Origin: Candidatus Buchananbacteria bacterium RIFCSPHIGHO2_02_FULL_56_16 | GTDB lineage: Bacteria; Patescibacteriota; Patescibacteriia; Buchananbacterales; UBA6539 | Length of the DNA stretch: 49,330 nt | Direction of reading: 5' to 3' | Assembly: GCA_001817495.1 (NCBI GenBank) | Contig: MHIL01000026.1 | Coordinates: 18,657 to 67,986 of the forward strand | Shown here: piece by piece, positions 4,966 to 46,458 of the stretch | How the letters are laid out: every line of letters starts with the position of its first letter | Position numbering within the stretch: the stretch's first letter is position 1 | Position numbers and translations under genes: made by a program | The notes under the pieces: model-generated | The model's input: only the letters and a program-made list of their open reading frames with translations | The model's database searches: none | Told to the model about the DNA's origin: nothing

Positions 4966-6162
4966 ATGGCTCAAACCAATCCCAACCAACCGCCAGAGAA
5001 CCAGCAGTCCGGGGAAACCTCGCCGGAAGAAACCCGGCGGCTCCGCGAAGCGGTTTTACGCTGGCTGGAGAAAACCACCGCGCCCAAGCCGCACCAAAAG
5101 CCGGCGCAGGTTCCAAAACCGCCAAAACCAATCGAGCCACCCGCTAAAGCAACCCGAGCTGATGTTGCCACAAAATCACCCCAGGCACCTCTGGTTCAGC
5201 GCGCTGAACGTCCGGCAGTTGAAAAACCGAAACGAGCGAGCAGAAAAAAGGGCGGGTGGCGTCGAACCGTCAGCCTGGTAGCCGGAGGAATGATGGCCGG
5301 GCTGGTGCTCGTAGTAGCGGTTTTCGGGTTACTCCTGTACCAGTTCAAGTGGCAGGCCGGCTGGGCGGCGGCAGTCACCAGCATCATTCCGTACCCGGTA
5401 GTAATCGTCGACTACCGGCCGCTGCCGTACCGCGAGTGGCAGCAGCAGGTGACGACCCTGCACCAGTTTTACCTCCTGGAAAAGGACCAGAACCCCGAGC
5501 TCGAAATCCCGACGCTTGCGCAAACCCGGCAGCACATTTTAAATCGGATGGTTGAGCAAGTACTGCTCGATGAGCTGGCAACCCGCTACAACCTCACCGT
5601 CACCGACCAAGAGATTGCCCAGAACACCGCGGCGTTGACCGAGGAGATCGGCGGCGAACAGGCGCTGGTCGAGCAGCTCCAGAAGCTCTACGGCTGGACG
5701 ATTGCTGATTTCCAAAAAACTATCTTGCGATCCGTGCTGCTTAAAAACAAACTGAAGCTGGCGCTTACCCTCGACGAGCGAATCAATCCTGAAGTTCGCC
5801 AGCGCGCCGAGCAGGTGCAGAACCTGGTTCGAACCAGCGGCCGTGATTTTGCCGACCTGGCCGCCGAGTACAGTGAAGACGTCACCGCGGTTCAGGGCGG
5901 AGACCTGGGCTACTTCGCGCCCGGCCAGATGGTGCCGATGTTTGAAGCCGCCGCCAAGACGCTGGAGCCGGGCCAGGTCAGCGACCTGGTTAAAACCGAA
6001 TTCGGCTACCACATCATTAAGCTCGAAGAAAAATTGACTGATGAGGCTGGCACCGTTACCCAGATGCGGGCCCGGCACATTTTACTGCGAACCATAAGCC
6101 TGGACGAGTACCTGGAGCAAATGAAACAAACAGCCGCCATTTGGCAGCTGGTAAACCTGTGA
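4966..6162 (+). CDS. Membrane-anchored parvulin-type peptidyl-prolyl isomerase (PrsA/SurA-like)
   Basis: C-terminal PpiC domain ..DFADLAAEYSEDVTAVQGGDLGYFAPGQMVPMFE..EFGYHIIKLEEK. Start taken at ATG 4966, directly after the upstream stop, rather than track start 4936. Confidence 0.8.
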   Translation: MAQTNPNQPPENQQSGETSPEETRRLREAVLRWLEKTTAPKPHQKPAQVPKPPKPIEPPAKATRADVATKSPQAPLVQRAERPAVEKPKRASRKKGGWRRTVSLVAGGMMAGLVLVVAVFGLLLYQFKWQAGWAAAVTSIIPYPVVIVDYRPLPYREWQQQVTTLHQFYLLEKDQNPELEIPTLAQTRQHILNRMVEQVLLDELATRYNLTVTDQEIAQNTAALTEEIGGEQALVEQLQKLYGWTIADFQKTILRSVLLKNKLKLALTLDERINPEVRQRAEQVQNLVRTSGRDFADLAAEYSEDVTAVQGGDLGYFAPGQMVPMFEAAAKTLEPGQVSDLVKTEFGYHIIKLEEKLTDEAGTVTQMRARHILLRTISLDEYLEQMKQTAAIWQLVNL

Positions 6163-6430: not shown

Positions 6431-6514
6431 GGCAAGTTGGCTTGTCGCAAATCGCGAATTGCCTATCGCGTATCGTTTGCACGATTTGCCATGTGCGATA
6501 AGCGATTGGCAAAA
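6431..6514. repeat. GCAAATC/GATTTGC-type periodic hairpin repeat (family F3, copy 1) in the tRNA-Gly to tRNA-Thr spacer
   Basis: Left arm ..gtcgcaaatcgcgaattgcctatcgc.. and right arm ..cgatttgccatgtgcgataagcgattggc.. share the unit sequence of the copies at 13318, 23262 and 26463. Confidence 0.5.
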
Positions 6515-6587
6515 AGCGGGAAACGGGACTCGAACCCGCGACCTTCTGCTTGGGAAGCAGACGCTCTACCAGCTGAGCTACTCCCGC
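6515..6587 (-). tRNA. tRNA-Gly (anticodon CCC)
   Basis: Reverse complement reads GCGGGAGTAGCTCAGCTGGTAGAGCGTCTGCTTCCCAAGCAGAAGGTCGCGGGTTCGAGTCCCGTTTCCCGCT. Canonical arms, anticodon loop TTCCCAA. Confidence 0.9.
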
Positions 6588-7500: not shown

Positions 7501-7626
7501 TATGCCCCGTAGTAGCCCCTCACCTTATGTAAGCAAGCATTACTACATGGAACGATGTAATCATGTATTATTAGTAACTACCCCTTACCTTGAAATAAGC
7601 AAGGTGAGGGATCACTACGGGGTATG
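7501..7626 (+). repeat. Start-codon-abutting structured element (SCE), copy A
   Basis: TATGCCCCGTAGTAGCCCCTCACCTT at the 5' end pairs with AAGGTGAGGGATCACTACGGGGTATG at the 3' end. The last ATG is the ftsX start codon. Confidence 0.8.
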
Positions 7627-8541
7627 AGCCTCGCTTCCTGGTACCAACTGATTATCTTTTCCTGGCAGAGCTTTTGGCGTAACATCTGGCTCTCGATTGT
7701 GACGATCACCATTATCGTCCTGGCGCTCGTGTCGATCAATTTTCTCGTCGTCTTGAATGTCATCACCGACACTGCGGTTTCGCTGGTTCAGGAAAAAATT
7801 GACGTCAGCGTCTACTTCAAGCAGACCGTCACCGAGCCGCAGGTGCTGGAGGTCAAAACCTACCTCGCCTCGCTGGCCCAGGTGGACGACATCACCTACA
7901 TTTCCCAACAGACGGCCCTGCAAGCGTTCCGCGAGCGCCACCAGCAGAATACCGCCATCATCGAGTCGCTCGAAGCGCTCGACCAAAACCCGCTGGGCGC
8001 AACGCTCATCATTCAAGCCAAAAGTCTTGATGACTACCCCGAGATCCTCTCGGTGCTCGACAACTCAAAGTACAATGAGCTCATTTTGGACAAAAACTTT
8101 GAAGACCACGCGGCGTACATCAGCAAGCTCAAAAACATCTCAGACACCATCAACCGAATCGGCATCCTGACCGCCGCGGTCTTCATCTTTATCGCGACCC
8201 TGATTGTCTTTAACACCATTCGGGTCGCCATCTACACCCACCGGCAAGAAATCGGCATCATGAAGCTGGTCGGCGCCGCAAACTGGTTCATCCGCAGCCC
8301 GTTTTTGTTCAGCGGCATCTGGTACGGCATCGTCGCCACGGTGTTCGCCGTCGCCATTATGTTCCCCCTCCTCAAGGTGATGCAGCCGCCCCTGAACGCT
8401 TTTTTCCTGACGGCAGACGTCAGCCTGGCCGCCTACTTTCGTCAGCACTTCTGGCAAATTTTCGGCATCGAGTTCCTCGGCATCATCCTGCTCAACGCCG
8501 TCAGCAGCTTCGTCGCGATCCGCCGGTACCTCAAGGTGTAA
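7624..8541 (+). CDS. ftsX: Cell division permease FtsX
   Basis: 305 aa with an N-terminal TM helix, a periplasmic-type loop and three C-terminal TM helices. Positioned after ftsE. Confidence 0.85.
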   Translation: MSLASWYQLIIFSWQSFWRNIWLSIVTITIIVLALVSINFLVVLNVITDTAVSLVQEKIDVSVYFKQTVTEPQVLEVKTYLASLAQVDDITYISQQTALQAFRERHQQNTAIIESLEALDQNPLGATLIIQAKSLDDYPEILSVLDNSKYNELILDKNFEDHAAYISKLKNISDTINRIGILTAAVFIFIATLIVFNTIRVAIYTHRQEIGIMKLVGAANWFIRSPFLFSGIWYGIVATVFAVAIMFPLLKVMQPPLNAFFLTADVSLAAYFRQHFWQIFGIEFLGIILLNAVSSFVAIRRYLKV

Positions 8542-8692: not shown

Positions 8693-8741
8693 GTTTGCTC
8701 CGGAGCGTAGTCGACAAAACCTAAACCTTACTGAAAAAACG

Positions 8742-8918
8742 TTCACCCAATCATTCATCAAAGCTTCACTACTGGATATGCCCAGTAGTAGAACTTCGAT
8801 TGGGAAATTACGATCAGTTATCCTAAACCACTTTGTAGTGGGTTAAAAAAAGGTCGCGTTTACTCTCATAAAAGAGACATTCACCCAATAATTAATCGAA
8901 GTTTCACTACTGGGTATG
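8742..8918 (+). repeat. Start-codon-abutting structured element (SCE), copy B, with 39-nt direct repeat
   Basis: 8742-8780 and 8880-8918 are 34/39 identical and both end in TATG. 8781-8806 (CCCAGTAGTAGAACTTCGATTGGG) is complementary to both. The last ATG is the yidC start. Confidence 0.75.
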
Positions 8919-9641
8919 GAAATATTTATCGTGCTGTGGAACCAGTACCTCTACATCCCGCTCTACAATTTTCTCATCTGGCTCTACTCAAGTTATTCTT
9001 CTTACAACCTCGGCGTGGCGGTGATTATCCTCACCATCCTGCTGCGGCTGCTGCTGCTGCCGTTCACCATCCTGGTTGAGCGGGGCAAGATCATCGGCGA
9101 GGGACTCGAACAGGCGGTGCGAGAGATTCAGCGCGATTTTCAGAACGACCCGGTCAAGCAGCGACACTTCATCCGGCGGTACCTGAAACGCAACAAGGTC
9201 CGTCCCTGGGCCAAGGCGGTGGTTCTCGGCGTCCAGGGCCTCGTCCTGGTCCTCCTCTACCAGGTGTTCATCGGCGGGATCAACACCCAGGAAAAAATCC
9301 CCCTGCTGTACTCGTGGATGCCCCGGCCCGACTTTATCAACACTCAATTTTTTTGGTTCGACGTCGGCCAGCGCAATTATTTCCTGGCCGCCATCGTCGC
9401 CGGCTACGTTTTTGCCGAAATTCTCATCGGCCAGTGGGAGGAAAAGGTAAAACCGACCCGCCAGGAGGAGCTGTTCGCCCTGCTCTTCCCCGCCATGACG
9501 TTCCTCGTCCTGGCCTGGCTGCCCTCGGTGAAGTCGCTCTTTATTTTGACGTCGCTGCTTTTTTCGACTATAATATCTATGGTTACGGCACTGATTAAAA
9601 AAGGCCTCAAGAAACCGCAGAAACAGCCTAACGTTTCATAA
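8916..9641 (+). CDS. yidC: Membrane protein insertase YidC (short form)
   Basis: 241 aa multi-TM protein with the ..AVIILTILLRLLLLPFTI.. motif of the YidC/Oxa1 family. Confidence 0.75.
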   Translation: MEIFIVLWNQYLYIPLYNFLIWLYSSYSSYNLGVAVIILTILLRLLLLPFTILVERGKIIGEGLEQAVREIQRDFQNDPVKQRHFIRRYLKRNKVRPWAKAVVLGVQGLVLVLLYQVFIGGINTQEKIPLLYSWMPRPDFINTQFFWFDVGQRNYFLAAIVAGYVFAEILIGQWEEKVKPTRQEELFALLFPAMTFLVLAWLPSVKSLFILTSLLFSTIISMVTALIKKGLKKPQKQPNVS

Positions 9642-10356: not shown

Positions 10357-11661
10357 ATGAAGGTAGCAATCATCGGCACCGGCTACGTCGGACTAACCAC
10401 GGGAGTATGCCTGGCTGACCTCGGTCACCAGGTTGTTTGCGTTGATAACGACCCGGCTAAGCTGGCCCTGCTGCAGCAGCACCGCGCGCCGATCTTTGAG
10501 CCGGGTATCGAAGCCCTGATTGCCAAGAATGCCGAGGCCGGCCGGCTGACCTTTAGCGCGGAAATCGTGCCGGCGGTCCGGCAGTCGGACGTCATCTTCA
10601 TCTGCGTCAACACGCCGCCCAAGGCCGACGGCACTGCCGACCTCAAGTACGTCGAGCAGGTGGCCCGGGAAACGGCTAAGGCGCTCAACGGCGGCTACAA
10701 GGTGATCGTCGACAAGAGCACGGTGCCGGTGACAACCGCCGAGAAGGTGCGGGAAACAATCGAGCGCTACAAAACCGAGCACACCACCTTCGACGTGGTT
10801 TCAAATCCTGAATTTTTACGCGAGGGCAGCGCCCTGCACGACACCTTTGAGCCGGACCGAATCGTCATCGGCGCCGACAGCGAGCGAGGCAAGCGGGTGA
10901 TGCTCGAGCTCTACCGGCCGCTGATCGAAAAAATCCATGCGCCGGTGAAGATCGTTTCAGTCCGGAGCGCCGAGCTGATTAAGCATGGGGCGAACACCTT
11001 TCTGGCAGCCAAGATTTCCTTCGCCAATCTCATCGCCGAACTCTGCGAGCACTCCCAAGCCGACAGCCGCGAGGTGCTGGAAGCCATCGGCATTGACCCG
11101 CGGATTGGCCGGCAGTTTTTAAGCCCGGGCATCGGGTTTGGCGGCAGCTGCTTTCCCAAAGACATCGCCGCCTTTAAAAAAACGCTGGAAACCGCCGGCA
11201 TCGATCCGGCGTTCGTCCGGGCGATCGAGCAAATCAACGACCGGGCCTGGCGGCGGTTTGTCAGCCGCCTCGAGCAAGAGCTCTGGGTGATCGACGGCAA
11301 AACCATCGGCGTGCTGGGACTGTCGTTTAAGCCCAATACCGACGACATCCGTAACGCGCCGGCGTTAAAGATTATTGAAAAGCTCAAAGCCGACGGCGCC
11401 CGCCTCAAGGTCTACGACCCGCAGGCGATGGGTAAAGTCAAACAGCTGTTTACCGACGTCGAGTACTGCCATGACCCCTACCAGGTCGCCAAAGGCAGCC
11501 AGGCGCTCGTCCTCTGCACCGAGTGGGAGGAGTTTAAGACCCTCGACTTCAAGAAGATTAAAGCCCAGATGGCGACCCCGCTGATCTTTGACGGCCGCAA
11601 CGCGTTAAACCCGGCCGAGCTCACGGCGCTGGGCTTCAGGTACGTCGGGGTTGGACGGTAA
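10357..11661 (+). CDS. ugd: UDP-glucose 6-dehydrogenase
   Basis: N-terminal Rossmann motif MKVAIIGTGYVGLTTG and catalytic GFGGSCFPKD motif. 434 aa. Confidence 0.9.
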   Translation: MKVAIIGTGYVGLTTGVCLADLGHQVVCVDNDPAKLALLQQHRAPIFEPGIEALIAKNAEAGRLTFSAEIVPAVRQSDVIFICVNTPPKADGTADLKYVEQVARETAKALNGGYKVIVDKSTVPVTTAEKVRETIERYKTEHTTFDVVSNPEFLREGSALHDTFEPDRIVIGADSERGKRVMLELYRPLIEKIHAPVKIVSVRSAELIKHGANTFLAAKISFANLIAELCEHSQADSREVLEAIGIDPRIGRQFLSPGIGFGGSCFPKDIAAFKKTLETAGIDPAFVRAIEQINDRAWRRFVSRLEQELWVIDGKTIGVLGLSFKPNTDDIRNAPALKIIEKLKADGARLKVYDPQAMGKVKQLFTDVEYCHDPYQVAKGSQALVLCTEWEEFKTLDFKKIKAQMATPLIFDGRNALNPAELTALGFRYVGVGR

Positions 11662-11813
11662 AAAATCAAAAATTAAAAATCAAAATGCAAAATTTAGGTG
11701 TCCCCACCTTTCTGCATCATCTAAGAGATACCGGAAGGCGGGGACAGTTTATTTAAAAATCCCGCATCAGCGGGATACCTTAGCTTTTATTTTTGGTTTT
11801 TGATTTTTGATTT
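11662..11813. repeat. A/T-run periodic hairpin repeat (family F4, copy 1) with two inner hairpins
   Basis: AAAAATCAAAAATTAAAAATCAAAATGCAAAAT pairs with TTTTGGTTTTTGATTTTTGATTT, and the two mismatches are U.G on the + strand. Inner stems at 11700-11745 and 11758-11777. Confidence 0.65.
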
Positions 11814-11841
11814 CCTCTTATTGGGCTCTGGCCCTTTTTTT

Positions 11842-13317: not shown

Positions 13318-13419
13318 GATGCGAGTGGCAAATCGCAAATTGCATATCGCTTATCGTGCTTTCGATTTGCCATTTGCGATTGGCGATTAACGAATTCGCA
13401 TCATTCGTATTACCCATTT
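13318..13419. repeat. Family F3 periodic hairpin repeat, copy 2, ending at the uvrD start
   Basis: 13331-13350 is identical to 26514-26533 (20/20). 13361-13377 is identical to 26544-26560 (17/17). Confidence 0.65.
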
Positions 13420-16215: not shown

Positions 16216-16324
16216 CTACCCCGCTTGTTGTTTGTAGTTGACCCTAATTATATTAAAAAATGTCCCGACGGAATCGGGACTCAAAAATTTTGATTTTTGC
16301 ATTTTGATTTTTGATTTTATTTCT

Positions 16325-18934
16325 ATGAATCCCCAAAAACTAACCCTCAAAGCCCAAAACGCGCTCCAAGCCGCGCTTGAGCTGGCGGCCGAACGCAGCC
16401 AGCAGTATTTGACCGTCAGCCACCTCCTCGTGGCACTTATTGAGCAAGAGGACGGCGTCGTGCGGTCAGTCTTAAAGAAGCTTGAAGTTGACCTCGGCGC
16501 GCTCCAACGACAGCTCGACGCTGAACTGGCCAAGGTACCGCAGGTCAGCGGCGGCGGCCTGGCCCAGCAGCAAATTGACCAAACCTTTCAAAAGGTGCTG
16601 ATGCAGGCCGAGAAAGAAGCGAAGAAGCTCACCGACGAGTACATCAGCACCGAGCACCTGCTGCTCGCGATCGTTGAGGTAAAGTCGCCGGTAGCCGAGA
16701 TCCTCAAGCGGGCCGGCGTTGACTACGACGCGATCCTGACGATCCTGCGCGACATCCGGGGCACCCAGCGCATCACCGACCCCGACCCGGAGAGCAAGTA
16801 CCAGTCGCTATCAAAGTACGGCGTTGACCTCACCGAGCAGGCCCGGCAAGGCAAGCTCGACCCGATCGTCGGCCGCGACACCGAGATCCGGCGGGTGATG
16901 CAGGTACTGTCGCGCCGGACTAAGAACAACCCCGTCTTAATCGGCGAACCGGGCACCGGCAAAACCGCCATCGCCGAAGGCCTCGCCCGACGGATTACCT
17001 CTGGCGACGTACCTGAAAGTTTAAAAAATAAATCCATCATCAGCCTCGACATCGGCGCTTTGGTGGCCGGCACTAAGTTTCGGGGCGAGTTTGAAGACCG
17101 GCTCAAAGCGGTGCTCAAAGAAATCGAAGCAGCAGCCGGCTCGATTATCCTCTTTATCGACGAGCTGCATTTGGTCGTCGGCGCGGGCGGCGCGGAAGGG
17201 GCGGTTGACGCGGCTAACATCCTCAAACCGGCCCTGGCCCGCGGCACGCTCCACGCCATCGGCGCGACCACCCTGAAAGAGTACCAGAAGTACCTCGAGA
17301 AAGACGCCGCCCTCGAGCGTCGGTTCCAGCCGGTCTACGTCGGCGAGCCGGGTGTCGACGACACCATCGCGATCCTGCGCGGCATTAAAGAAAAGTACGA
17401 GGTCCACCACGGCGTCCGGATTACCGACAGCGCCCTGGTCGCCGCAGCCAAGCTTTCGGCCCGCTACATCACCGACCGCTTCCTGCCCGATAAGGCGATT
17501 GACCTGATTGACGAAGCGACCTCGGCCCTGCGGATGGAGATTGACTCGATGCCCGACGAGCTCGACAGCCTGAAACGAAAAATCACCCAGCTGGAGATTG
17601 AACGCGAAGCGCTGAAAAAAGAATCGGACGCCGCGGCCAAGAAACGGCTGCGCAACCTCGAGCGGCAGCTGGCCGACCTGCGCGAGCAGAGCAACCAGAT
17701 CGAGATCCACTGGCAGAACGAGAAAAAGCTCATCAACGAAATCCAGGCCTGCCAGCACCAGATCGAGCAGCTGAAGATGGAGGCTGATAGAGCGGAACGT
17801 GATGCCGAGCTGGAGAAGGTGGCGGAGATTAAGTACGGCCGGATTCCGGAGCTGGAGAAACGCAGCAAGGCGGCCGCTAAAAAGCTGGCCAATGTCCAGA
17901 AAGACAAGCGGATGCTCAAGGAAGAGGTGACCGAGCACGACATCGCCGCGGTCGTCTCGCGCTGGACCGGCATCCCGGTGACCAAGATGCTTGAGAGTGA
18001 AACCAAAAAGCTGGCGAACCTCGAAGACGAATTGCGCCGGCGCGTGGTCGGCCAGGACGAGGCGCTGCGGGCGATCGCCAACGCGGTGCGGCGCTCGCGG
18101 GCCGGCATCGCCGAGGCCAGCCGGCCGATCGGCTCCTTCATCTTTTTGGGCCCGACCGGCGTGGGTAAAACCGAAACCGCCAAGGCCCTGGCCGAATCAA
18201 TGTTCAGCGACGAGCGGGCGCTGGTGCGCGTTGATATGTCCGAGTACATGGAGAAACACAGCGTTTCCAAGATGATCGGCTAGCCGCCGGGCTACGTCGG
18301 CTTCGAAGAGGGCGGCCAGCTGACCGGAATCATCCGCCGCCGGCCCTACGCCATCGTCCTCTTTGACGAGATTGAGAAAGCCCACCCGGACGTCTTTAAC
18401 ATCCTGCTCCAGATCCTCGACGACGGCCGGCTGACCGACGCCAAGGGACGCGTCGTCAACTTCAAGAACACCGTCATCATCATGACCTCGAACCTGGGCG
18501 GGGATGTAATCAAGGAGTACACCATCGGCTTCACCGACCAGAAGCAGCGCGAAACCGTTGATGAAAAAGAAATGGAGAGCCGCATCACCGAAATTTTGCG
18601 GCGGACGTTCAAGCCGGAGTTTTTGAACCGGCTGGACGAGATTATCATTTTCCACGCCCTGGGGCCGGCCCAGATCGTCCAGATCGTCCTGCGTCAGCTC
18701 GAGCTGGTTACCGCCCGGCTCAAAGAGAAAGACATCAGCCTGACCTTCACCGACAAGCTCAAAACATTCCTGGCGACTAAAGGGTTTGACCCGGTCTACG
18801 GCGCCCGGCCGCTGCGGCGGCTGATCCAGCACCACGTGCTCGACGAGCTGGCGCTGCGCATCATCGAGGGCACCGTCAGCCCCGGCTCTCGGCTGACCGT
18901 CAACGTTTCGAACGGCAAGGTAGTCATTAGCTAG
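16325..18934 (+). pseudogene. clpB: ClpB disaggregase interrupted by a single in-frame TAG at 18281-18283
   Basis: MNPQKLTLKAQNALQ.. N-domain, two AAA+ modules ([18 protein letters not shown]), coiled-coil M domain. Reads ..[22 protein letters not shown].. in the same frame on both sides. Confidence 0.85.
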
Positions 18935-22610: not shown

Positions 22611-22639
22611 TTGACAATCAATAGAATATTTAGTAGTAT
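22611..22639 (+). promoter_or_regulatory. Sigma70-like promoter (TTGACA-17-TAGTAT)
   Basis: Hexamers at 22611-22616 and 22634-22639, in the AT-rich spacer upstream of infA. Confidence 0.55.
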
Positions 22640-22761: not shown

Positions 22762-22900
22762 TATGCCCGGTAGTGATCCCTCACCTTATTGAGGATAGTG
22801 TAGGAGAAACTACTGCTTGGCAAACCCTCTAACAATAATTACCGTTTCCCTCAACCTTACTGTGTAAGACCAAAATGGTGAGGGACTACTACCGGGTATG
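22762..22900 (+). repeat. Start-codon-abutting structured element (SCE), copy C
   Basis: The 30-nt left end and 24-nt right end are identical to copy D. The last ATG is the infA start. Confidence 0.8.
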
Positions 22901-23134
22901 GCCCAAAACAAAAACGTGCCGCCCAGCAAAGAGTTCATCGAGATGGACGGCGAGGTAAGCGAGCTGTTGCCCGCCGCCAGCTTCCGAGTCCGGCTGGAGA
23001 ACGGCCACGAAATTCTGGCTCACCTCTCCGGCAAGATGCGGATGCACAAGATTAAGCTCTTGCCCGGCGATAAGATTAAAGCCCAGATCACGCCCTACGA
23101 TCTGACCAAGGGTCGCATTGTTTACCGTTACTGA
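22898..23134 (+). CDS. infA: Translation initiation factor IF-1
   Basis: S1-like fold sequence ..[64 protein letters not shown]. Confidence 0.95.
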
Positions 23135-23261: not shown

Positions 23262-23359
23262 TTTCGCCTATCGCTAATCGCCTATGGCACATAGTACTAA
23301 TCGAAACAGAGTAACTAGAGGCGCGATTCGCCATGTGCGATTCGCTATTTGCTAACACT
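23262..23359. repeat. Family F3 periodic hairpin repeat, copy 3, ending at the rpsM start
   Basis: ..cgcctatcgctaatcgcc.. versus ..ggcgcgattcgccatgtgcgattcgctat... Occupies the whole rpmJ-rpsM spacer. Confidence 0.45.
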
Positions 23360-25919: not shown

Positions 25920-26111
25920 CATACGGTGAGTTGCGTGTAAAAATCCTAAATCCTAAGCGTTACATGTCAGCTTTGAGCTGATAGCGGCTAGATTTTTAGG
26001 AAGTAGCTTCTTAGCTTGTAGTTTTTTAGAAAACGGTAAGTCTCGGCAACTCGGAAGCTAAAAAAAGCTAACTCCTAATTCCTAAAAGCTAACGGCTAAA
26101 AGCTCCCTCAT
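25920..26111. repeat. Family F2 (AGCT-type) hairpin repeat, copy 3, ending at the rplQ start
   Basis: 25969-26021 is 50/53 identical to the reverse complement of 478-530. Its ends match copy 2. Confidence 0.75.
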
Positions 26112-26462: not shown

Positions 26463-26591
26463 AATACCGATGCGAAACTGTGAATCAATACGAATGATAC
26501 AAATATACAAGCTAATCGCAAATTGCATATCGCCAATCACCGGTTCGATTTGCCATTTGCAATAAGCGATTAGCGATTTGCCATTCCCCCT
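26463..26591. repeat. Family F3 periodic hairpin repeat, copy 4, ending at the rplM start
   Basis: Shares exact 20-mer and 17-mer blocks with copy 2. Heptad-like units GCAAATC/GATTTGC. Confidence 0.65.
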
Positions 26592-27575: not shown

Positions 27576-27627
27576 ATTTCCAATTGATCCATAGCTTTTT
27601 TTTTGGGGGAAAAAAAAATTTATGACA

Positions 27628-27665
27628 GCGCGTAGCAGAACCTTTATGGTTCTGCGTCCTATTCA
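27628..27665. promoter_or_regulatory. Conserved palindrome-containing box, copy 1 (candidate operator)
   Basis: GCGCGTAGCAGAACCTTTATGGTTCTGCGTCCTATTCA is 38/38 identical to 28188-28225. Core inverted repeat CAGAACC-N5-GGTTCTG. Confidence 0.6.
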
Positions 27666-27739
27666 GCGGGCGACCCATACCCGCCTACATATAATTTCGG
27701 CGGGGTAAAAAGGGTCGGCTATGCGGTTTGCTTATTTTA

Positions 27740-27748
27740 TGATACACT
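27740..27748 (+). promoter_or_regulatory. Extended -10 (TGaTACACT)
   Basis: Conserved in the paralogous cassette as TGaTACAAT at 28278-28286. Confidence 0.45.
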
Positions 27749-27782
27749 CAAAACAGCTCTTTGAAAGGAAGGTAATAAGCAA

Positions 27783-28150: not shown

Positions 28151-28181
28151 ATCCTCCGATAGCTAGTTGGAGGATTTTTTT
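28151..28181 (+). terminator. Intrinsic terminator
   Basis: ATCCTCC-gatagctagtt-GGAGGAT followed by TTTTTT. Confidence 0.65.
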
Positions 28182-28187
28182 ATGGCG

Positions 28188-28225
28188 GCGCGTAGCAGAA
28201 CCTTTATGGTTCTGCGTCCTATTCA
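28188..28225. promoter_or_regulatory. Conserved palindrome-containing box, copy 2
   Basis: Identical 38-mer to 27628-27665, while the flanking sequence has diverged. Confidence 0.6.
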
Positions 28226-28277
28226 TCGGACCACCTTGAGCTCGTGGAAAGGTCGGCTACGCGGGTTACTTATTTTA

Positions 28278-28286
28278 TGATACAAT
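28278..28286 (+). promoter_or_regulatory. Extended -10 (TGaTACAAT)
   Basis: Paralogous position to 27740-27748. Confidence 0.45.
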
Positions 28287-28318
28287 TAAAACAGCTCTTT
28301 GAAAGTGAGGGTATAAAA

Positions 28319-34012: not shown

Positions 34013-34693
34013 ATGGTTCGCCTCCAAAAATTTCTCGCTGATGCCGGCGTCGCATCTCGCCGCAAGGCCGAAACGCTCATCGCCGACGGCAAGGTTAAAA
34101 TCAACGGCGCGGTAGTGACCAAACCCGGCACGCTGGTGGATGAACACCGAGACGCGGTCGAGTGCAAGGGTATTTCTGTCAGGCTCAAAACAAAAAAAGT
34201 CTACCTGGCTGTGCATAAACCAGTTGGGTATATCTCGAGCGCGAGCGACGGCCAGGGTAAATCAATTTTGTCAATTATCGGCTCAAGAGAGCGAATTTAC
34301 CCGGTTGGCCGGCTAGACAAGGATTCTTGTGGATTACTTATCTTGACAAACGATGGTGAGTTTACCAATCAAATCACCCACGCCCGGTTCGGCTGCGAGA
34401 AAGAGTACTTCGTCACCCTCGACCGGGATTTGGCAGCCGGCGATATTAAAAAAATCGAGCGGGGGATGCGCTTAAGCGACGGCACCAGGCTGCGATCGGT
34501 AAAAGTCGTGACCGCGAAAAATAAATCAGCCCGCCTCGTGCTCAAGGAAGGCGTCAACCGCCAGATCCGCCGCATGCTCGGCACGCTCGGCTACACGGTC
34601 GTGAAATTGAAACGGATTCGGATCGGCAAGCTGGAACTCGGCACGCTCAAGGCAGGGGAGTGGAAGAGCATCAGGCCGGAGGATGTGCTATGA
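34013..34693 (+). CDS. Pseudouridine synthase (RsuA/RluB family) with S4 domain
   Basis: MVRLQKFLADAGVASRRKAETLI (S4 domain) and catalytic ..YPVGRLDKDSCGLLILTNDGEF.. Confidence 0.9.
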   Translation: MVRLQKFLADAGVASRRKAETLIADGKVKINGAVVTKPGTLVDEHRDAVECKGISVRLKTKKVYLAVHKPVGYISSASDGQGKSILSIIGSRERIYPVGRLDKDSCGLLILTNDGEFTNQITHARFGCEKEYFVTLDRDLAAGDIKKIERGMRLSDGTRLRSVKVVTAKNKSARLVLKEGVNRQIRRMLGTLGYTVVKLKRIRIGKLELGTLKAGEWKSIRPEDVL

Positions 34694-34799
34694 AAAAATT
34701 AAAAATAAAAAATCAAAATGTAAAGCTACAAATCAAATTTCAAAGCTTTGACCTTTTAGCTGCACCTTTGATTTTTGCTTTTTGATTTTTAATTTTTCT
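34694..34799. repeat. Family F4 (A/T-run) periodic hairpin, copy 2, spanning exactly stop to start
   Basis: AAAAATTAAAAATAAAAAATCAAAA.. pairs with ..TTTGATTTTTAATTTTT. Nested AAAGCTACAAATCAAA/TTTGATTTTTGCTTT and central TCAAAGCTTTGA. Confidence 0.7.
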
Positions 34800-38528: not shown

Positions 38529-38549
38529 AGCTGTAATCAGTATAGCACG

Positions 38550-38699
38550 TCAGTGCCGTTCATGCACCGACGGGTCGGCGTCGAGCCGGCCGATGTCTTC
38601 TTCCAGCCGCTCGCACGCTTCAGGGTTCCCACCGAGCTGGGCTTCAATCAGCTGGTTCAAGTGAGCGCGCAACGCTTCGAGGTACATAAGGCGGTCCAT
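38550..38699 (-). CDS. Small protein (49 aa) upstream of def
   Basis: ATG 38699 preceded by AAGGAGA. MDRLMYLEALRAHLNQLIEAQLGGNPEACERLEEDIGRLDADPSVHERH. Confidence 0.4.
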   Translation of the reverse strand: MDRLMYLEALRAHLNQLIEAQLGGNPEACERLEEDIGRLDADPSVHERH

Positions 38700-40137: not shown

Positions 40138-40170
40138 ACCTTACTTCGCAACAGCGTTGCTCCCAAGCGG

Positions 40171-40197
40171 GCAGCTCCCATCGAGCTGCTTTTTTTC
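40171..40197 (+). terminator. Intrinsic terminator of the small-ORF operon
   Basis: GCAGCTC-ccatc-GAGCTGC followed by TTTTTTT. Confidence 0.75.
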
Positions 40198-40224
40198 TTG
40201 TCTCCATCTGCTATACTAACGTTG

Positions 40225-40394
40225 TATGCCCGGTAGTGATCCCTCACCTTATTGGATGAGACCAGAAGAAAATACTACTGGGCAGACTCTTTAATGATAA
40301 ATTACTAAATCACGTCGTTACGCGAACGACGTGATAAACTCCCTTCACCTCGCTGTTTAATGTTAAACCAGGTGAGGGACTACTACCGGGTATG
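40225..40394 (+). repeat. Start-codon-abutting structured element (SCE), copy D
   Basis: Ends identical to copy C. Extended -10 TGcTATACT (40209-40217) ends 8 nt before the first ATG. The last ATG is the start of ORF 40392. Confidence 0.8.
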
Positions 40395-40679
40395 CTCAGA
40401 ATCGACCAACCTGAATCAATGCGGGCCCTGTTGGGCAAGCGATCAACCGTCAAGCCGCCGGCTTACGATTGGCAGGACCTGGCGCTGCGGATCATTGATG
40501 AGCTTGGTATTCCGCCAAAAAAGCGCAACGCGGTGTTTCGGGTCTGCAAGCAGCATCCCAAGCGAGTGATTGAGAAAGCATTGAACGATACCAAGGAGCT
40601 GGTCAAGGTGGGGGAGCGCTGGCGGTACTTTTTCAAGGTTATTGAGAACAAAGAGCGGCCGCTTGAAACAAAAAAATGA
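40392..40679 (+). CDS. Hypothetical protein (95 aa)
   Basis: ORF begins at the terminal ATG of SCE copy D. No family recognised. Confidence 0.5.
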   Translation: MLRIDQPESMRALLGKRSTVKPPAYDWQDLALRIIDELGIPPKKRNAVFRVCKQHPKRVIEKALNDTKELVKVGERWRYFFKVIENKERPLETKK

Positions 40680-46443: not shown

Positions 46444-46452
46444 TGCTATATT
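46444..46452 (+). promoter_or_regulatory. Extended -10 (TGcTATATT) ending 6 nt before ATG 46459
   Basis: TATATT at 46447-46452. Confidence 0.5.
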
Positions 46453-46458
46453 GGCAGC

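Follow-up and report, generated by a model that had tools for sequence, protein, structure and literature searches.

The window analyzed here is a stretch of 49,330 nucleotides from Candidatus Buchananbacteria bacterium RIFCSPHIGHO2_02_FULL_56_16 (contig MHIL01000026.1, positions 18,657 to 67,986). It contains four hairpin elements of 118-162 bp, designated copies A to D, each of which is bracketed by two copies of TATG and follows the arrangement TATG-CCCNGTAGT…ACTACN'GGG-TATG. An earlier note on this DNA had described four copies that each end on a start codon, and inspection of the sequence confirmed both their positions and this property. The final ATG is in every case (4/4) the start of an ORF: ftsX, yidC, infA, and an unnamed ORF. 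The features of the locus are as follows.

7501-7504 and 7623-7626: TATG duplications of copy A
7505..7622, + strand: copy A, non-autonomous element of 118 bp, CCCTCACC arm subfamily (sequence, fold)
7624..8541, + strand: ftsX, host of copy A; its ATG is the right-hand duplication copy (PF02687, PF18075)
8739..8776, + strand: decayed right arm left by an earlier insertion, immediately 5' of copy B (84% identity to 8877-8914)
8777-8780 and 8915-8918: TATG duplications of copy B
8781..8914, + strand: copy B, non-autonomous element of 134 bp, majority arm type GTAGTAGAACTTCGA (sequence, fold)
8916..9641, + strand: yidC, host of copy B; its ATG is the right-hand duplication copy (PF02096)
22611-22639: promoter-like site 5' of copy C
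22762-22765 and 22897-22900: TATG duplications of copy C
22766..22896, + strand: copy C, non-autonomous element of 131 bp, CCCTCACC subfamily (sequence, fold)
22898..23134, + strand: infA, host of copy C; its ATG is the right-hand duplication copy (PF01176, E 2.5e-24)
40169-40191: terminator-like hairpin, upstream of the -10-like site at copy D
40209..40217, + strand: extended -10-like TGcTATACT, 8 nt upstream of copy D's left ATG (read from sequence)
40225-40228 and 40391-40394: TATG duplications of copy D
40229..40390, + strand: copy D, non-autonomous element of 162 bp, CCCTCACC subfamily (fold -67.3 kcal/mol, z -8.1)
40309-40335: unrelated perfect hairpin inside copy D
40392..40679, + strand: 95-aa ORF, host of copy D; its ATG is the right-hand duplication copy (no Pfam family)

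The 95-aa ORF at 40392 matched no Pfam family. The promoter-like site at 22611-22639 lies upstream of copy C, so that this element would be transcribed within the infA 5' leader. The -10-like site near copy D, a putative promoter read from the letters, suggests that the host ORF was originally leaderless or nearly so. No promoters were found within the elements. The idea that an upstream ORF relays translation to the host's ATG was considered and set aside, as it holds at copy A only; elsewhere the upstream frame ends 20-130 nt before the host ATG. The degenerate right-arm remnant 5' of copy B is also present in a relative, L218. Copies A, C, and D belong to a subfamily whose inner arms are unlike those of any gene-bearing copy seen and whose orientation relative to host genes is mixed.

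The terminal helix

The window contains 12 occurrences of the motif CCCNGTAGT, where 0.66 would be expected; none of 100 shuffles (0 of 100) reached 12. The RNA folds of the window copies have z-scores of -5.5 to -8.1 (copy A, -46 kcal/mol, z -5.55). The termini are 20-bp inverted repeats that comprise CCCNGTAGT, a conserved 2-nt mismatch, and nine covarying pairs; together, the two termini fold into one hairpin on a single strand. Within the terminal stem, 96% of cells are paired and both sides have changed in 12 of 18 pairs, values as high being obtained in 0 of 500 shuffles. The sequence of the inner 9 bp drifts and its pairing is kept.

The covariation anticipated by the earlier note is thus supported by the pairs changed on both sides, and several of its finer observations hold. 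N and N' covary as C:G, A:T, G:C, and G:C in the four copies, the tandem G.T/A.C irregularity that follows GTAGT was found in 4/4, and copies C and D have 30 nt of left end and 24 nt of right end in common around unrelated interiors. The helix that it estimated at ~20-24 bp covaries as described, but the stem is exactly 20 bp, with the 2-nt mismatch at positions 10-11. The TATG copies, which had been thought to pair the start codon into the stem base, contribute weak pairs only; the stem ends 1 nt before the host AUG. The assignment of all copies to the coding strand needs similar qualification: the strand is set by TATG alone, the termini themselves being inverted repeats. An attempt to orient copies by interior similarity failed because the interiors are unrelated between copies and have almost no k-mers in common.

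The motifs from which two mutually exclusive folds had been proposed, ACTACNGG and the arm-like sequences in the interiors, do exist, and local alternative pairing is in part reproduced, in that the left arm of copies C and D pairs with internal ACUACUGG once the right arm is blocked. The two-state switch itself is not supported and was rejected on energetic grounds: with the terminal helix, the fold surpasses the best alternatives in stability by 22-36 kcal/mol. The interiors are unrelated, and stem mismatches show no overall G.U-type bias on the sense strand (48 vs 52). As a separate observation, C:A is in excess at stem position 4.

Insertion polymorphism, family spread, and start codons

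The bracketing TATG copies represent a target-site duplication. On insertion, 3-5 bp of the target are duplicated, usually 4, and TATG is preferred. Perfect 4-bp direct repeats, of ~20 different sequences, border 51 of 74 copies sampled regardless of flanks, and the matching of the two flanks across these 4-mers is seen also within one genome. At L175, one copy is nested inside another and has its own TTTG duplication. The orientation relative to the asymmetric tetranucleotide is uniform in many genomes.

Relatives of the source genome contain empty sites. The copy A site is empty in relatives with 92, 86, 80, 69, and 57% FtsX identity, an empty ftsX site reading …TAAccTATG-ftsX; the copy is present in 10 of the 10 fetched contigs with FtsX identical to that of the window. 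Copy B is present at 92% FtsX identity (L218) and absent at 86%. It is absent from L219 (…cgccTATGGAAATATT), L222, and L204, and the empty yidC site in relatives reads …cgccTATG-yidC. The infA start of a distant relative with 74% IF-1 identity (L336) is occupied by a decayed copy with intact arms and an unrelated interior, which could reflect long retention under selection rather than turnover.

The element family is found across Patescibacteria, with more than 300 copies of 65-160 bp outside the window. As expected of MITEs, the window copies are short, non-coding, and multicopy, have inverted termini as well as duplications and empty sites, and possess a longer coding relative. Membership in a known MITE family had been named as grounds for abandoning the regulatory reading of these repeats; the element behaves as a MITE, though of no previously described family. 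Other leads proved to be spurious. A candidate at L185 for the distant matching termini of a long autonomous partner consists of two decayed short copies, and a "long ORF through the element" at L047 is prfB with its frameshift leader. Clustering of ORFs from 200 loci returned housekeeping families only. A phage origin was rejected, the element being on one viral contig only, with no viral relative of the nuclease described below found.

Of 113 copies retrieved by a pattern that requires TATG, 109 (96%) directly precede an ORF that is real or open. When copies were sampled regardless of flanks, 29 of 31 lay on start codons in this lineage and 36 of 74 (49%) phylum-wide; among the window's non-coding TATG/CATA sites, only 32% are start codons. 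The claim that the element always ends on a start codon is therefore correct for the window and nearly so for the lineage, but not for the phylum, where copies far from start codons, listed in advance as evidence against regulation, do occur. Hosts are enriched for translation genes, among them rpsL and alaS several times each, tuf, fusA, infA, and many ribosomal proteins.

A host start codon almost always falls within the duplicated bases, so that one ATG remains upstream while a second is restored at the host ORF; in one subfamily, the terminal A of the element regenerates the ATG. We know of no other bacterial element that inserts on a start codon and regenerates it. GGAG or GAGG lies upstream of only 6 of 48 window genes. 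Because the Shine-Dalgarno sequence is hardly used in the source genome, the start codon would be its main portable translation signal.

Gene-bearing copies and the GIY-YIG nuclease

Four copies of ~305-312 bp (one cut by the end of its locus) have the same termini and encode a GIY-YIG protein (PF01541, E 1e-14 to 1e-16). The full-length element measures 303-350 bp (median 313) and consists of the 20-bp left terminus, 5-8 nt, the nuclease ORF, and the 20-bp right terminus, which the nuclease stop codon abuts or overlaps. The nuclease is a single GIY-YIG domain of 85-90 aa for which PF01541 is the only strong domain match. Conservation of its catalytic Tyr, Tyr, Arg, His, and Glu is 90% or higher, and its closest solved structures are UPF0213 proteins (PDB 1zg2 and 1ywl; E 7e-10 and 4e-7), followed by SLX1. 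Relatives of the nuclease are encoded at 539 loci in the genome collection. Among the best 80 of these, both termini were detected at 57 and the pattern used detected none at 23. All 57 two-terminus copies contain the nuclease ORF alone, within 0-8 nt of both termini; 35 of them abut a host start codon, co-oriented with the host in 35 cases and opposed in 0.

One gene-bearing copy lies close to the window. L317, which is 100% identical to the last 1,834 nt of the window, contains a GIY-YIG copy of 320 bp at the start codon of serS; on the same contig, this copy lies 7.15 kb beyond the end of the window. Its nuclease gene begins with GTG and is interrupted by an in-frame TAG, and thus may be a pseudogene. 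The 127-bp MITE L160 keeps the last 32 codons of the nuclease gene, which identifies the short copies as deletion derivatives (MITEs). We are fairly confident that the four repeats in the window are likewise MITEs: members of a Patescibacteria-wide family of DNA mobile elements that have lost the gene through internal deletion. Their earlier interpretation as riboregulators rather than mobile elements is not supported in view of the duplications, the empty sites, the nested copy, and the gene-bearing parents.

How the family moves is a matter for more tentative proposals. A serious possibility, which we hold somewhat short of probable, is that the ~310-bp element is a self-sufficient transposon whose only protein, a single-domain GIY-YIG nuclease of 85-90 aa, acts on the hairpin formed by its own ends, with directional insertion at start codons and an ATG duplication that serves the element's own gene and restores that of the host. 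Lacking its own promoter and always oriented like the host gene, the nuclease ORF is probably expressed from host transcription and the upstream ATG copy. Its translation would probably occur through in-frame fusion to that ATG or through translational coupling, and the host ORF would probably be translated by re-initiation ~21 nt after the nuclease stop codon. One source gives the L012 nuclease as 95 aa, 10 residues longer than the 85-aa ORF, which is consistent with a start at the duplicated ATG. By analogy with the Ssn nucleases discussed below, the putative mover probably recognizes the termini when they are folded as a hairpin in single-stranded DNA, and it would cut a few nt outside the hairpin, with host repair probably finishing the insertion. 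MITEs keep the termini and would probably be moved in trans. In the host mRNA, the MITE stem would contribute ~22-36 kcal/mol of fold stability, and ribosomes initiating at the upstream AUG copy would probably open it. We know of no described autonomous insertion sequence as small as ~310 bp. Several points weigh against a nuclease-driven element: the possible pseudogene on the same contig, the 23 nuclease genes at which the pattern detected no termini, the distinct inner arms and mixed orientation of the subfamily of copies A, C, and D, the half of MITEs that phylum-wide lie away from start codons, and the infA start occupied in a distant relative. GIY-YIG enzymes are, moreover, hydrolytic and, to our knowledge, lack strand-transfer activity, which does not account for the duplication.

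This last point, which follows from general knowledge of the fold, would favor ordinary MITEs moved by an unseen DDE transposase (e.g., IS1380/piggyBac-like), with the GIY-YIG gene as cargo or a homing-type passenger in the loop. IS1380/piggyBac-like elements have CC(C) ends and 4-5 bp duplications; the termini described here begin with CCC, and DDE chemistry typically yields target-site duplications in the 3-5 bp range. However, no transposase was found in ~1.9 Mb of DNA flanking more than 300 copies, and the nuclease ORF is the sole content of the two-terminus gene-bearing copies (57/57), leaving only 0-8 nt to either terminus. An inner 9 bp that drifts and remains paired fits hairpin recognition and not a duplex binding site, and the strict co-orientation with host genes (35 to 0) also argues against a DDE enzyme. 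We consider such a transposase unlikely.

The hairpins might instead be selected cis-regulatory RNAs, namely attenuators or riboregulators that sequester the start region and that spread or arose because they are regulatory. In favor of this, compensatory changes preserve the stem, which reaches down to the AUG, and in copies A, C, and D the right-arm GGTGAGGG pairs with the left-arm CCCTCACC in a manner that resembles Shine-Dalgarno sequestration. The enrichment of translation genes among hosts and the occupied infA start at only 74% IF-1 identity, with its intact arms and unrelated interior, point the same way. Regulation does not account for insertions that are polymorphic between near relatives, duplications of many sequences, one copy nested in another, or the existence of gene-bearing parents; moreover, half of the copies phylum-wide are away from start codons, the sense strand has no excess of G.U-type mismatches, and the alternative folds are weaker by 22-36 kcal/mol. 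The earlier impression that no described RNA family is involved was upheld, with no match in Rfam 15 at gathering score or E<=5. A regulatory origin is in our estimate very unlikely; individual copies may have been secondarily exapted.

Hairpins of the REPIN/RAYT or IS200/IS605 (PATE) type, moved on single-stranded DNA by an HUH Y1 transposase, would explain the GTAG motif at the hairpin foot, the conserved arms around a variable spacer, and the uniform orientation to an asymmetric tetranucleotide in many genomes, but they are extremely improbable here given that HUH elements leave the target unduplicated, with a fixed tetranucleotide beside the insertions of each family, whereas these elements duplicate targets and have flanks that co-vary over ~20 4-mers, including within one genome, that the gene between the termini encodes a GIY-YIG nuclease, and that no Y1 family appeared among the ORF clusters from 200 fetched loci. 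The initial comparison with REP/REPIN elements was apt in that a hairpin repeat is tied to a small nuclease gene, but the gene encodes a GIY-YIG nuclease and not a RAYT.

Significance and comparison with known systems

These results link a phylum-wide hairpin repeat, for which there is direct evidence of mobility, to a GIY-YIG element with a single gene, and thereby connect the Ssn nucleases to transposon biology. A self-sufficient transposon of this kind, if real, would represent a new enzymatic class of prokaryotic transposition and provide a mobile-element origin for Ssn-type nucleases, and its ATG-duplicating strategy would suit bacteria that barely use the Shine-Dalgarno sequence. The genes rpsL, tuf, fusA, infA, and ftsZ tolerate a stem of ~22-36 kcal/mol ending 1 nt before the AUG, with almost no Shine-Dalgarno sequence; such stem-bearing essential genes make translation initiation in Patescibacteria directly testable. 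The elements also distort gene calls, as in the case of the L012 nuclease. They could be used as strain markers, the nucleases are candidate single-strand-specific tools, and the elements may explain some of the unclassified insertions reported in CPR rRNA genes, where both GIY-YIG-bearing and short ORF-less insertions have been described (PMC11270868).

In the searchable literature we found no report of duplications, insertion polymorphism, or start-codon targeting for such elements, and nothing specific on MITEs or repeats in CPR bacteria. The UPF0213 and prokaryotic Slx1-like proteins (PDB 1zg2, 1ywl) have the same minimal GIY-YIG domain. Slx1 is a structure-specific nuclease, and we know of no standalone UPF0213/Slx1-like protein that is mobile or bracketed by inverted repeats. 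T4 seg genes and I-TevI relatives resemble the present nucleases as selfish GIY-YIG genes that lie between conserved host genes and are expressed from host signals. However, they encode proteins of ~200-250 aa with DNA-binding domains, lack inverted termini and duplications, spread by homologous repair into the same locus rather than to many loci, and are not known to leave MITE derivatives.

Correia/NEMIS, ERIC, and RUP are bacterial MITEs that originated from insertion sequences of the DDE type, and their duplication is usually TA. Like the elements studied here, they are short and non-coding, have inverted termini and duplications, include many gene-adjacent copies, and are co-transcribed as stem-loops. 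The parent element described here differs in carrying a GIY-YIG nuclease only, and we know of no member of these three families that lands on or regenerates a start codon. REPIN/RAYT systems are similar in their inverted GTAG arms, less conserved spacer, genome-specific populations, and association with one small nuclease-type gene, but RAYT is an HUH Y1 transposase, its repeats lack target duplications, and they are extragenic rather than located on start codons. PATE of the IS200/IS605 type have separate subterminal hairpins and a fixed tetranucleotide, in contrast to the single hairpin formed here from both ends.

The closest published system is Ssn/NTS. Ssn (cd10448) is a 94-aa single-domain GIY-YIG nuclease that cuts single-stranded DNA a few nt 5' of a hairpin repeat (PMC11893778), and NTS/SRM hairpin repeats often lie on either side of its gene (Chenal et al., Nat Commun 2025, PMC11893778). 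Its proposed role is in the control of natural transformation; the authors remarked that the layout resembles an insertion sequence and raised IS-like mobility as a hypothesis only (PMC11893778). A text search of that paper returned no mention of target-site duplications, start codons, or Patescibacteria (PMC11893778). The two systems have in common a single-domain GIY-YIG protein of ~85-95 aa with similar active-site spacing (SsnA Y6, Y17, and E64 correspond to Y5, Y16, and E62 here), a gene bracketed by inverted-repeat DNA that also exists in many gene-less genomic copies, and directional repeats. They differ in that each Ssn flank is a complete hairpin of 20-50 nt. Such self-contained flanking hairpins (SRM) are not seen in the present elements, whose arms pair across the gene and not with themselves. 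Each flank is thus half of one hairpin, and the nuclease gene sits in its loop.

Four start-codon hairpins and their fold

The four repeats described in the earlier note lie where it placed them and have a common architecture, TATG + CCCNGTAGT … ACTACN'GGG + TATG, in which the last ATG is the start of an open reading frame (ORF) in all four cases.

Repeats in the window and their host genes
7501–7626, copy A: ftsX, start 7624 (Pfam)
8777–8918, copy B: yidC, start 8916 (Pfam)
22762–22900, copy C: infA, start 22898 (PF01176)
40225–40394, copy D: 95-aa ORF, start 40392 (no Pfam match)

The window contains 12 occurrences of the 9-mer CCCNGTAGT, whereas 0.66 are expected and 0/100 shuffles reach this number. 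Nine occurrences fall within the four copies (eight terminal, one inside copy D), and the remaining three lie within long ORFs without a partner arm. The terminal helix forms in all four copies (z-scores -5.5 to -8.1). Copies C and D indeed have common ends (30 nt left, 24 nt right) around unrelated interiors. Copy B carries the majority arm type; the other three copies (A, C, and D) have the inner arm CCCTCACC and make up a local subfamily.

The consensus terminus is CCCNGTAGT-RR-AAYTTCGA, and comparison of 119 copies gave a stem of exactly 20 bp. Elements fall into two size classes of ~65–78 bp and ~115–160 bp.

Stem of the hairpin in 119 copies
Positions 1–3: CCC:GGG
Position 4: any base, paired
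Positions 5–9: GTAGT:ACTAC
Positions 10–11: always mismatched, G.T then A.C or A.C then G.T
Positions 12–20: Watson-Crick pairs, sequence drifts
Position 21: mismatched

Among 70 diverse copies, 96.2% of cells are paired, compared with 29–49% in slid registers; both sides change in 12 of 18 pairs, and the covariation score is 0.458 vs 0.108 in shuffles, none of 500 being as high. Outside positions 10–11, sense-strand wobble-type mismatches (48) are not commoner than those of the antisense strand (52), so mismatch type gives no indication that pairing in the mRNA is under selection.

This bears on the proposal that the repeats are riboregulators with alternative folds. The internal ACTACNGG and arm-like motifs behind it are real and, when the right arm is blocked, the left arm of copies C and D pairs with internal ACUACUGG. 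However, the full terminal helix gives a fold 22–36 kcal/mol more stable than the alternatives, and the interiors are unrelated between copies. The hairpin and its link to start codons stand; the riboregulator reading is not supported. Promoter-like sites were not found inside the elements. One lies ~120 nt upstream of the infA element, and the whole hairpin should thus be present in the infA leader. The simplest idea for the route of host-gene translation is that ribosomes starting at the upstream AUG would open the stem and reach the host AUG. The upstream ATG of copy A opens a 41-codon frame that spans the whole element (7502–7627) and ends in a TGA overlapping the ftsX ATG (ATGA). A CCCTCACC-type element also occupies the infA start of a relative whose IF-1 identity is only 74% (L336, 7401–7521); the left duplication of this element has decayed to TTAT, and its interior is unrelated to that of copy C. 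Individual copies may have been exapted.

Upstream of copy D, an extended -10-like TGcTATACT lies downstream of a terminator-like hairpin and only 8 nt before the left ATG (40169–40217), which looks like a leaderless layout. A perfect 11-bp hairpin inside copy D (40309–40335) is unrelated. The window contains several other repeats.

Other repeats in the window
6447–6520, 13328–13401, 26511–26584, 23321–23355: second family of ~75 nt (GCAAATCGCAAATTGCATATCGC…CGATTTGCCATTTGCGAT…), partly palindromic, adjoining gene starts and a tRNA gene
11660–11830, 16275–16332, 34693–34797: intergenic A/T-rich inverted repeats with a 14-nt period
470–530 with 25969–26029: 61-nt inverted pair, 25 kb apart, 93% complementary
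27619–27778 with 28179–28316: duplicated intergenic block of ~160 nt

Mobility and the gene-bearing parent element

The organism of the window is Buchananbacteria-like, and orthologous sites exist in empty and filled states. The ftsE-ftsX junction is empty (…TAAccTATG… or overlapping ATGA) in relatives with FtsX identities of 92, 86, 80, 69, 57, and 43%, and copy A is present in 10/10 fetched contigs whose FtsX is identical to that of the window. The 92% relative has copy B, which is missing at 86% (…cgccTATGGAAATATT), 69%, and 57%. These sites settle the TATG bracket as a target-site duplication. In the 69% relative (L222, 5079–5918), the Band_7 gene is followed by archease and RtcB genes in place of the UDP-glucose dehydrogenase gene of the window.

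A sample drawn blind to flanks (a one-arm scan plus extra copies from fetched flanks; 74 elements) contains 51 with perfect 4-bp direct repeats of ~20 different sequences. TATG is the commonest; the others include TTGA, CATG, ATGA, TAAA, TATA, CAGG, CCAG, CGGG, and CTTT, and several are present together in a single genome. In locus L175, a copy of 78 bp (6042–6119), flanked by a separate TTTG duplication, is nested in the small internal hairpin of a longer copy (5933–6150). Abutting the left TATG of copy B on its upstream side is a degenerate right end (8739–8776) that is 84% identical to 8877–8914 and is also found in the 92% relative; this remnant of an older right arm suggests repeated insertion at the yidC start codon.

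Two copies of 305 and 312 bp contain an ORF for a GIY-YIG catalytic domain (PF01541, E 2.7e-14 and 1.6e-16), whose best solved-structure matches in a profile search are the UPF0213 proteins 1zg2 and 1ywl, followed by SLX1. Local searches revealed four gene-bearing copies with the same termini, every one on a host start codon, as well as paralogues of the nuclease gene that lack the termini. A 127-bp gene-less copy with a TATA duplication (L160) still encodes the last 32 nuclease residues, so such short copies (MITEs) are deletion derivatives of the gene-bearing element. The four window copies are MITEs of this family. The data establish its anatomy, mobility, parentage, and targeting statistics; the mobilizing role of the nuclease, the chemistry behind the duplication, and the path to host-gene translation are inferred.

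A profile-guided scan of the genome collection returned 539 loci. Among the best 80 of these 539, 57 have both termini; the gene-bearing elements are 303–350 bp long (median 313), with a nuclease ORF that begins 5–8 nt past the left terminus and a stop codon that abuts or overlaps the right terminus. In the same best 80 of 539, 35 elements abut a host start codon, 35/35 co-oriented with the host gene and 0 opposed. Each catalytic residue is conserved in at least 90% of these 80 proteins. Several genomes carry two diverged copies at different genes (e.g., L012 and L196, 85% identity). Duplications around gene-bearing copies are mostly 4 bp (TATG, ATGA, TGGA), with some of 3 bp (ATG) or 5 bp (TATGA); in a subfamily with TCCYGTAGT…GGA termini, the duplication is TGNN and the element's terminal A rebuilds the host ATG.

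No nuclease gene copy was found inside the window. Locus L317, which is 100% identical to the window's last 1,834 nt, contains a 320-bp element with a GIY-YIG ORF (8990–9309) on the same contig, 7.15 kb past the window end. This element lies on the serS start codon, is co-oriented with serS, and has a TATG duplication. With a GTG start and a TAG in frame, its ORF may be an inactive pseudogene.

Distribution and start-codon targeting

An exact search of one genome per species, with the two ends 95–125 nt apart, found at least 114 loci. By record title, nearly all listed loci are Patescibacteria/CPR, and some "TPA_asm" titles name other phyla; lineages among the matches listed include Saccharibacteria, Uhr-, Moran-, Parcu-, Wolfe-, Jorgensen-, Kaiser-, Doudna-, and Azambacteria. 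Also among the matches listed, the ORFs after the final ATG have canonical N-termini of S12, EF-Tu, L14, LeuRS, AlaRS, DnaB, and FtsZ. The four copies without a qualifying ORF include one on the prfB start (L047, 6707–6856), where the 22-codon ORF that comes next is the frame-0 leader preceding the programmed +1 frameshift. A metagenome scan with the A/C/D arm, blind to flanks, yielded 40 loci and 31 distinct elements of this lineage; 28/31 have the TATG duplication, and the host genes include S7, L6, L2, S19, EF-G, and FtsZ.

Copies at start codons
TATG-flanked copies, sampled blind to flanks: 19/23 (83%)
TATG-requiring pattern, matches listed (last ATG followed by an ORF of ≥60 aa or one that runs off the locus end): 109/113 (96%)
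This lineage, blind to flanks (start codons of real genes): ~29/31

Start codons account for 18/57 (32%) of the non-CDS TATG/CATA sites in the window, and the association follows in part from the TATG preference. The observed fractions are much higher, and the ATG occupies three registers within the duplication, so a preference for the tetranucleotide does not by itself account for the targeting.

Reconstructed target sites lack a Shine-Dalgarno sequence, and many are tight stop-start junctions. GGAG or GAGG precedes only 6/48 called genes in the window, and several genes, including the host of copy D, have an extended -10 box (TGnTATAnT) 6–10 nt before the ATG; examples lie at 46444–46458 and 38529–38550 (minus strand). 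Initiation in this genome thus seems largely leaderless or Shine-Dalgarno-independent. In such genomes, the start codon would be the chief portable signal for translation. We infer that a promoterless element duplicates the ATG, using one copy for its own ORF and returning the other to the host. This fits four in-frame fusions of gene-bearing copies, 11 more cases in which an upstream reading frame ends 1–8 nt before the nuclease ATG, and the distance of ~21 nt from the nuclease stop codon to the host ATG. The L012 protein is given in one source as 95 aa, 10 residues more than its 85-aa ORF, consistent with initiation at the duplicated ATG.

In many genomes the MITEs share one orientation relative to the host gene (9/9, 5/5, 4/4, 5/6), and the six majority-type copies of this lineage likewise point one way, a hint of directional insertion. 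The A/C/D subfamily, however, is mixed.

Comparison with published systems

Open-access literature text yielded no description of a GIY-YIG-bearing start-codon element. A survey of CPR rRNA genes reported non-intron GIY-YIG-encoding insertions together with short ORF-less insertions, the ends of which were not analysed (PMC11270868). Among published systems, the Ssn family comes closest. Its members, single-domain GIY-YIG enzymes of 94 aa, bind a directional hairpin repeat in ssDNA form and cleave a few nucleotides to its 5' side (PMC11893778). Such repeats occur on both flanks of 42% of Ssn genes, a layout that the authors liken to an insertion sequence, with IS-like mobility offered only as a hypothesis; the text of that paper makes no mention of duplications, start codons, or Patescibacteria (PMC11893778). 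Ssn genes have a whole hairpin on each flank, whereas the element described here has one arm on each flank.
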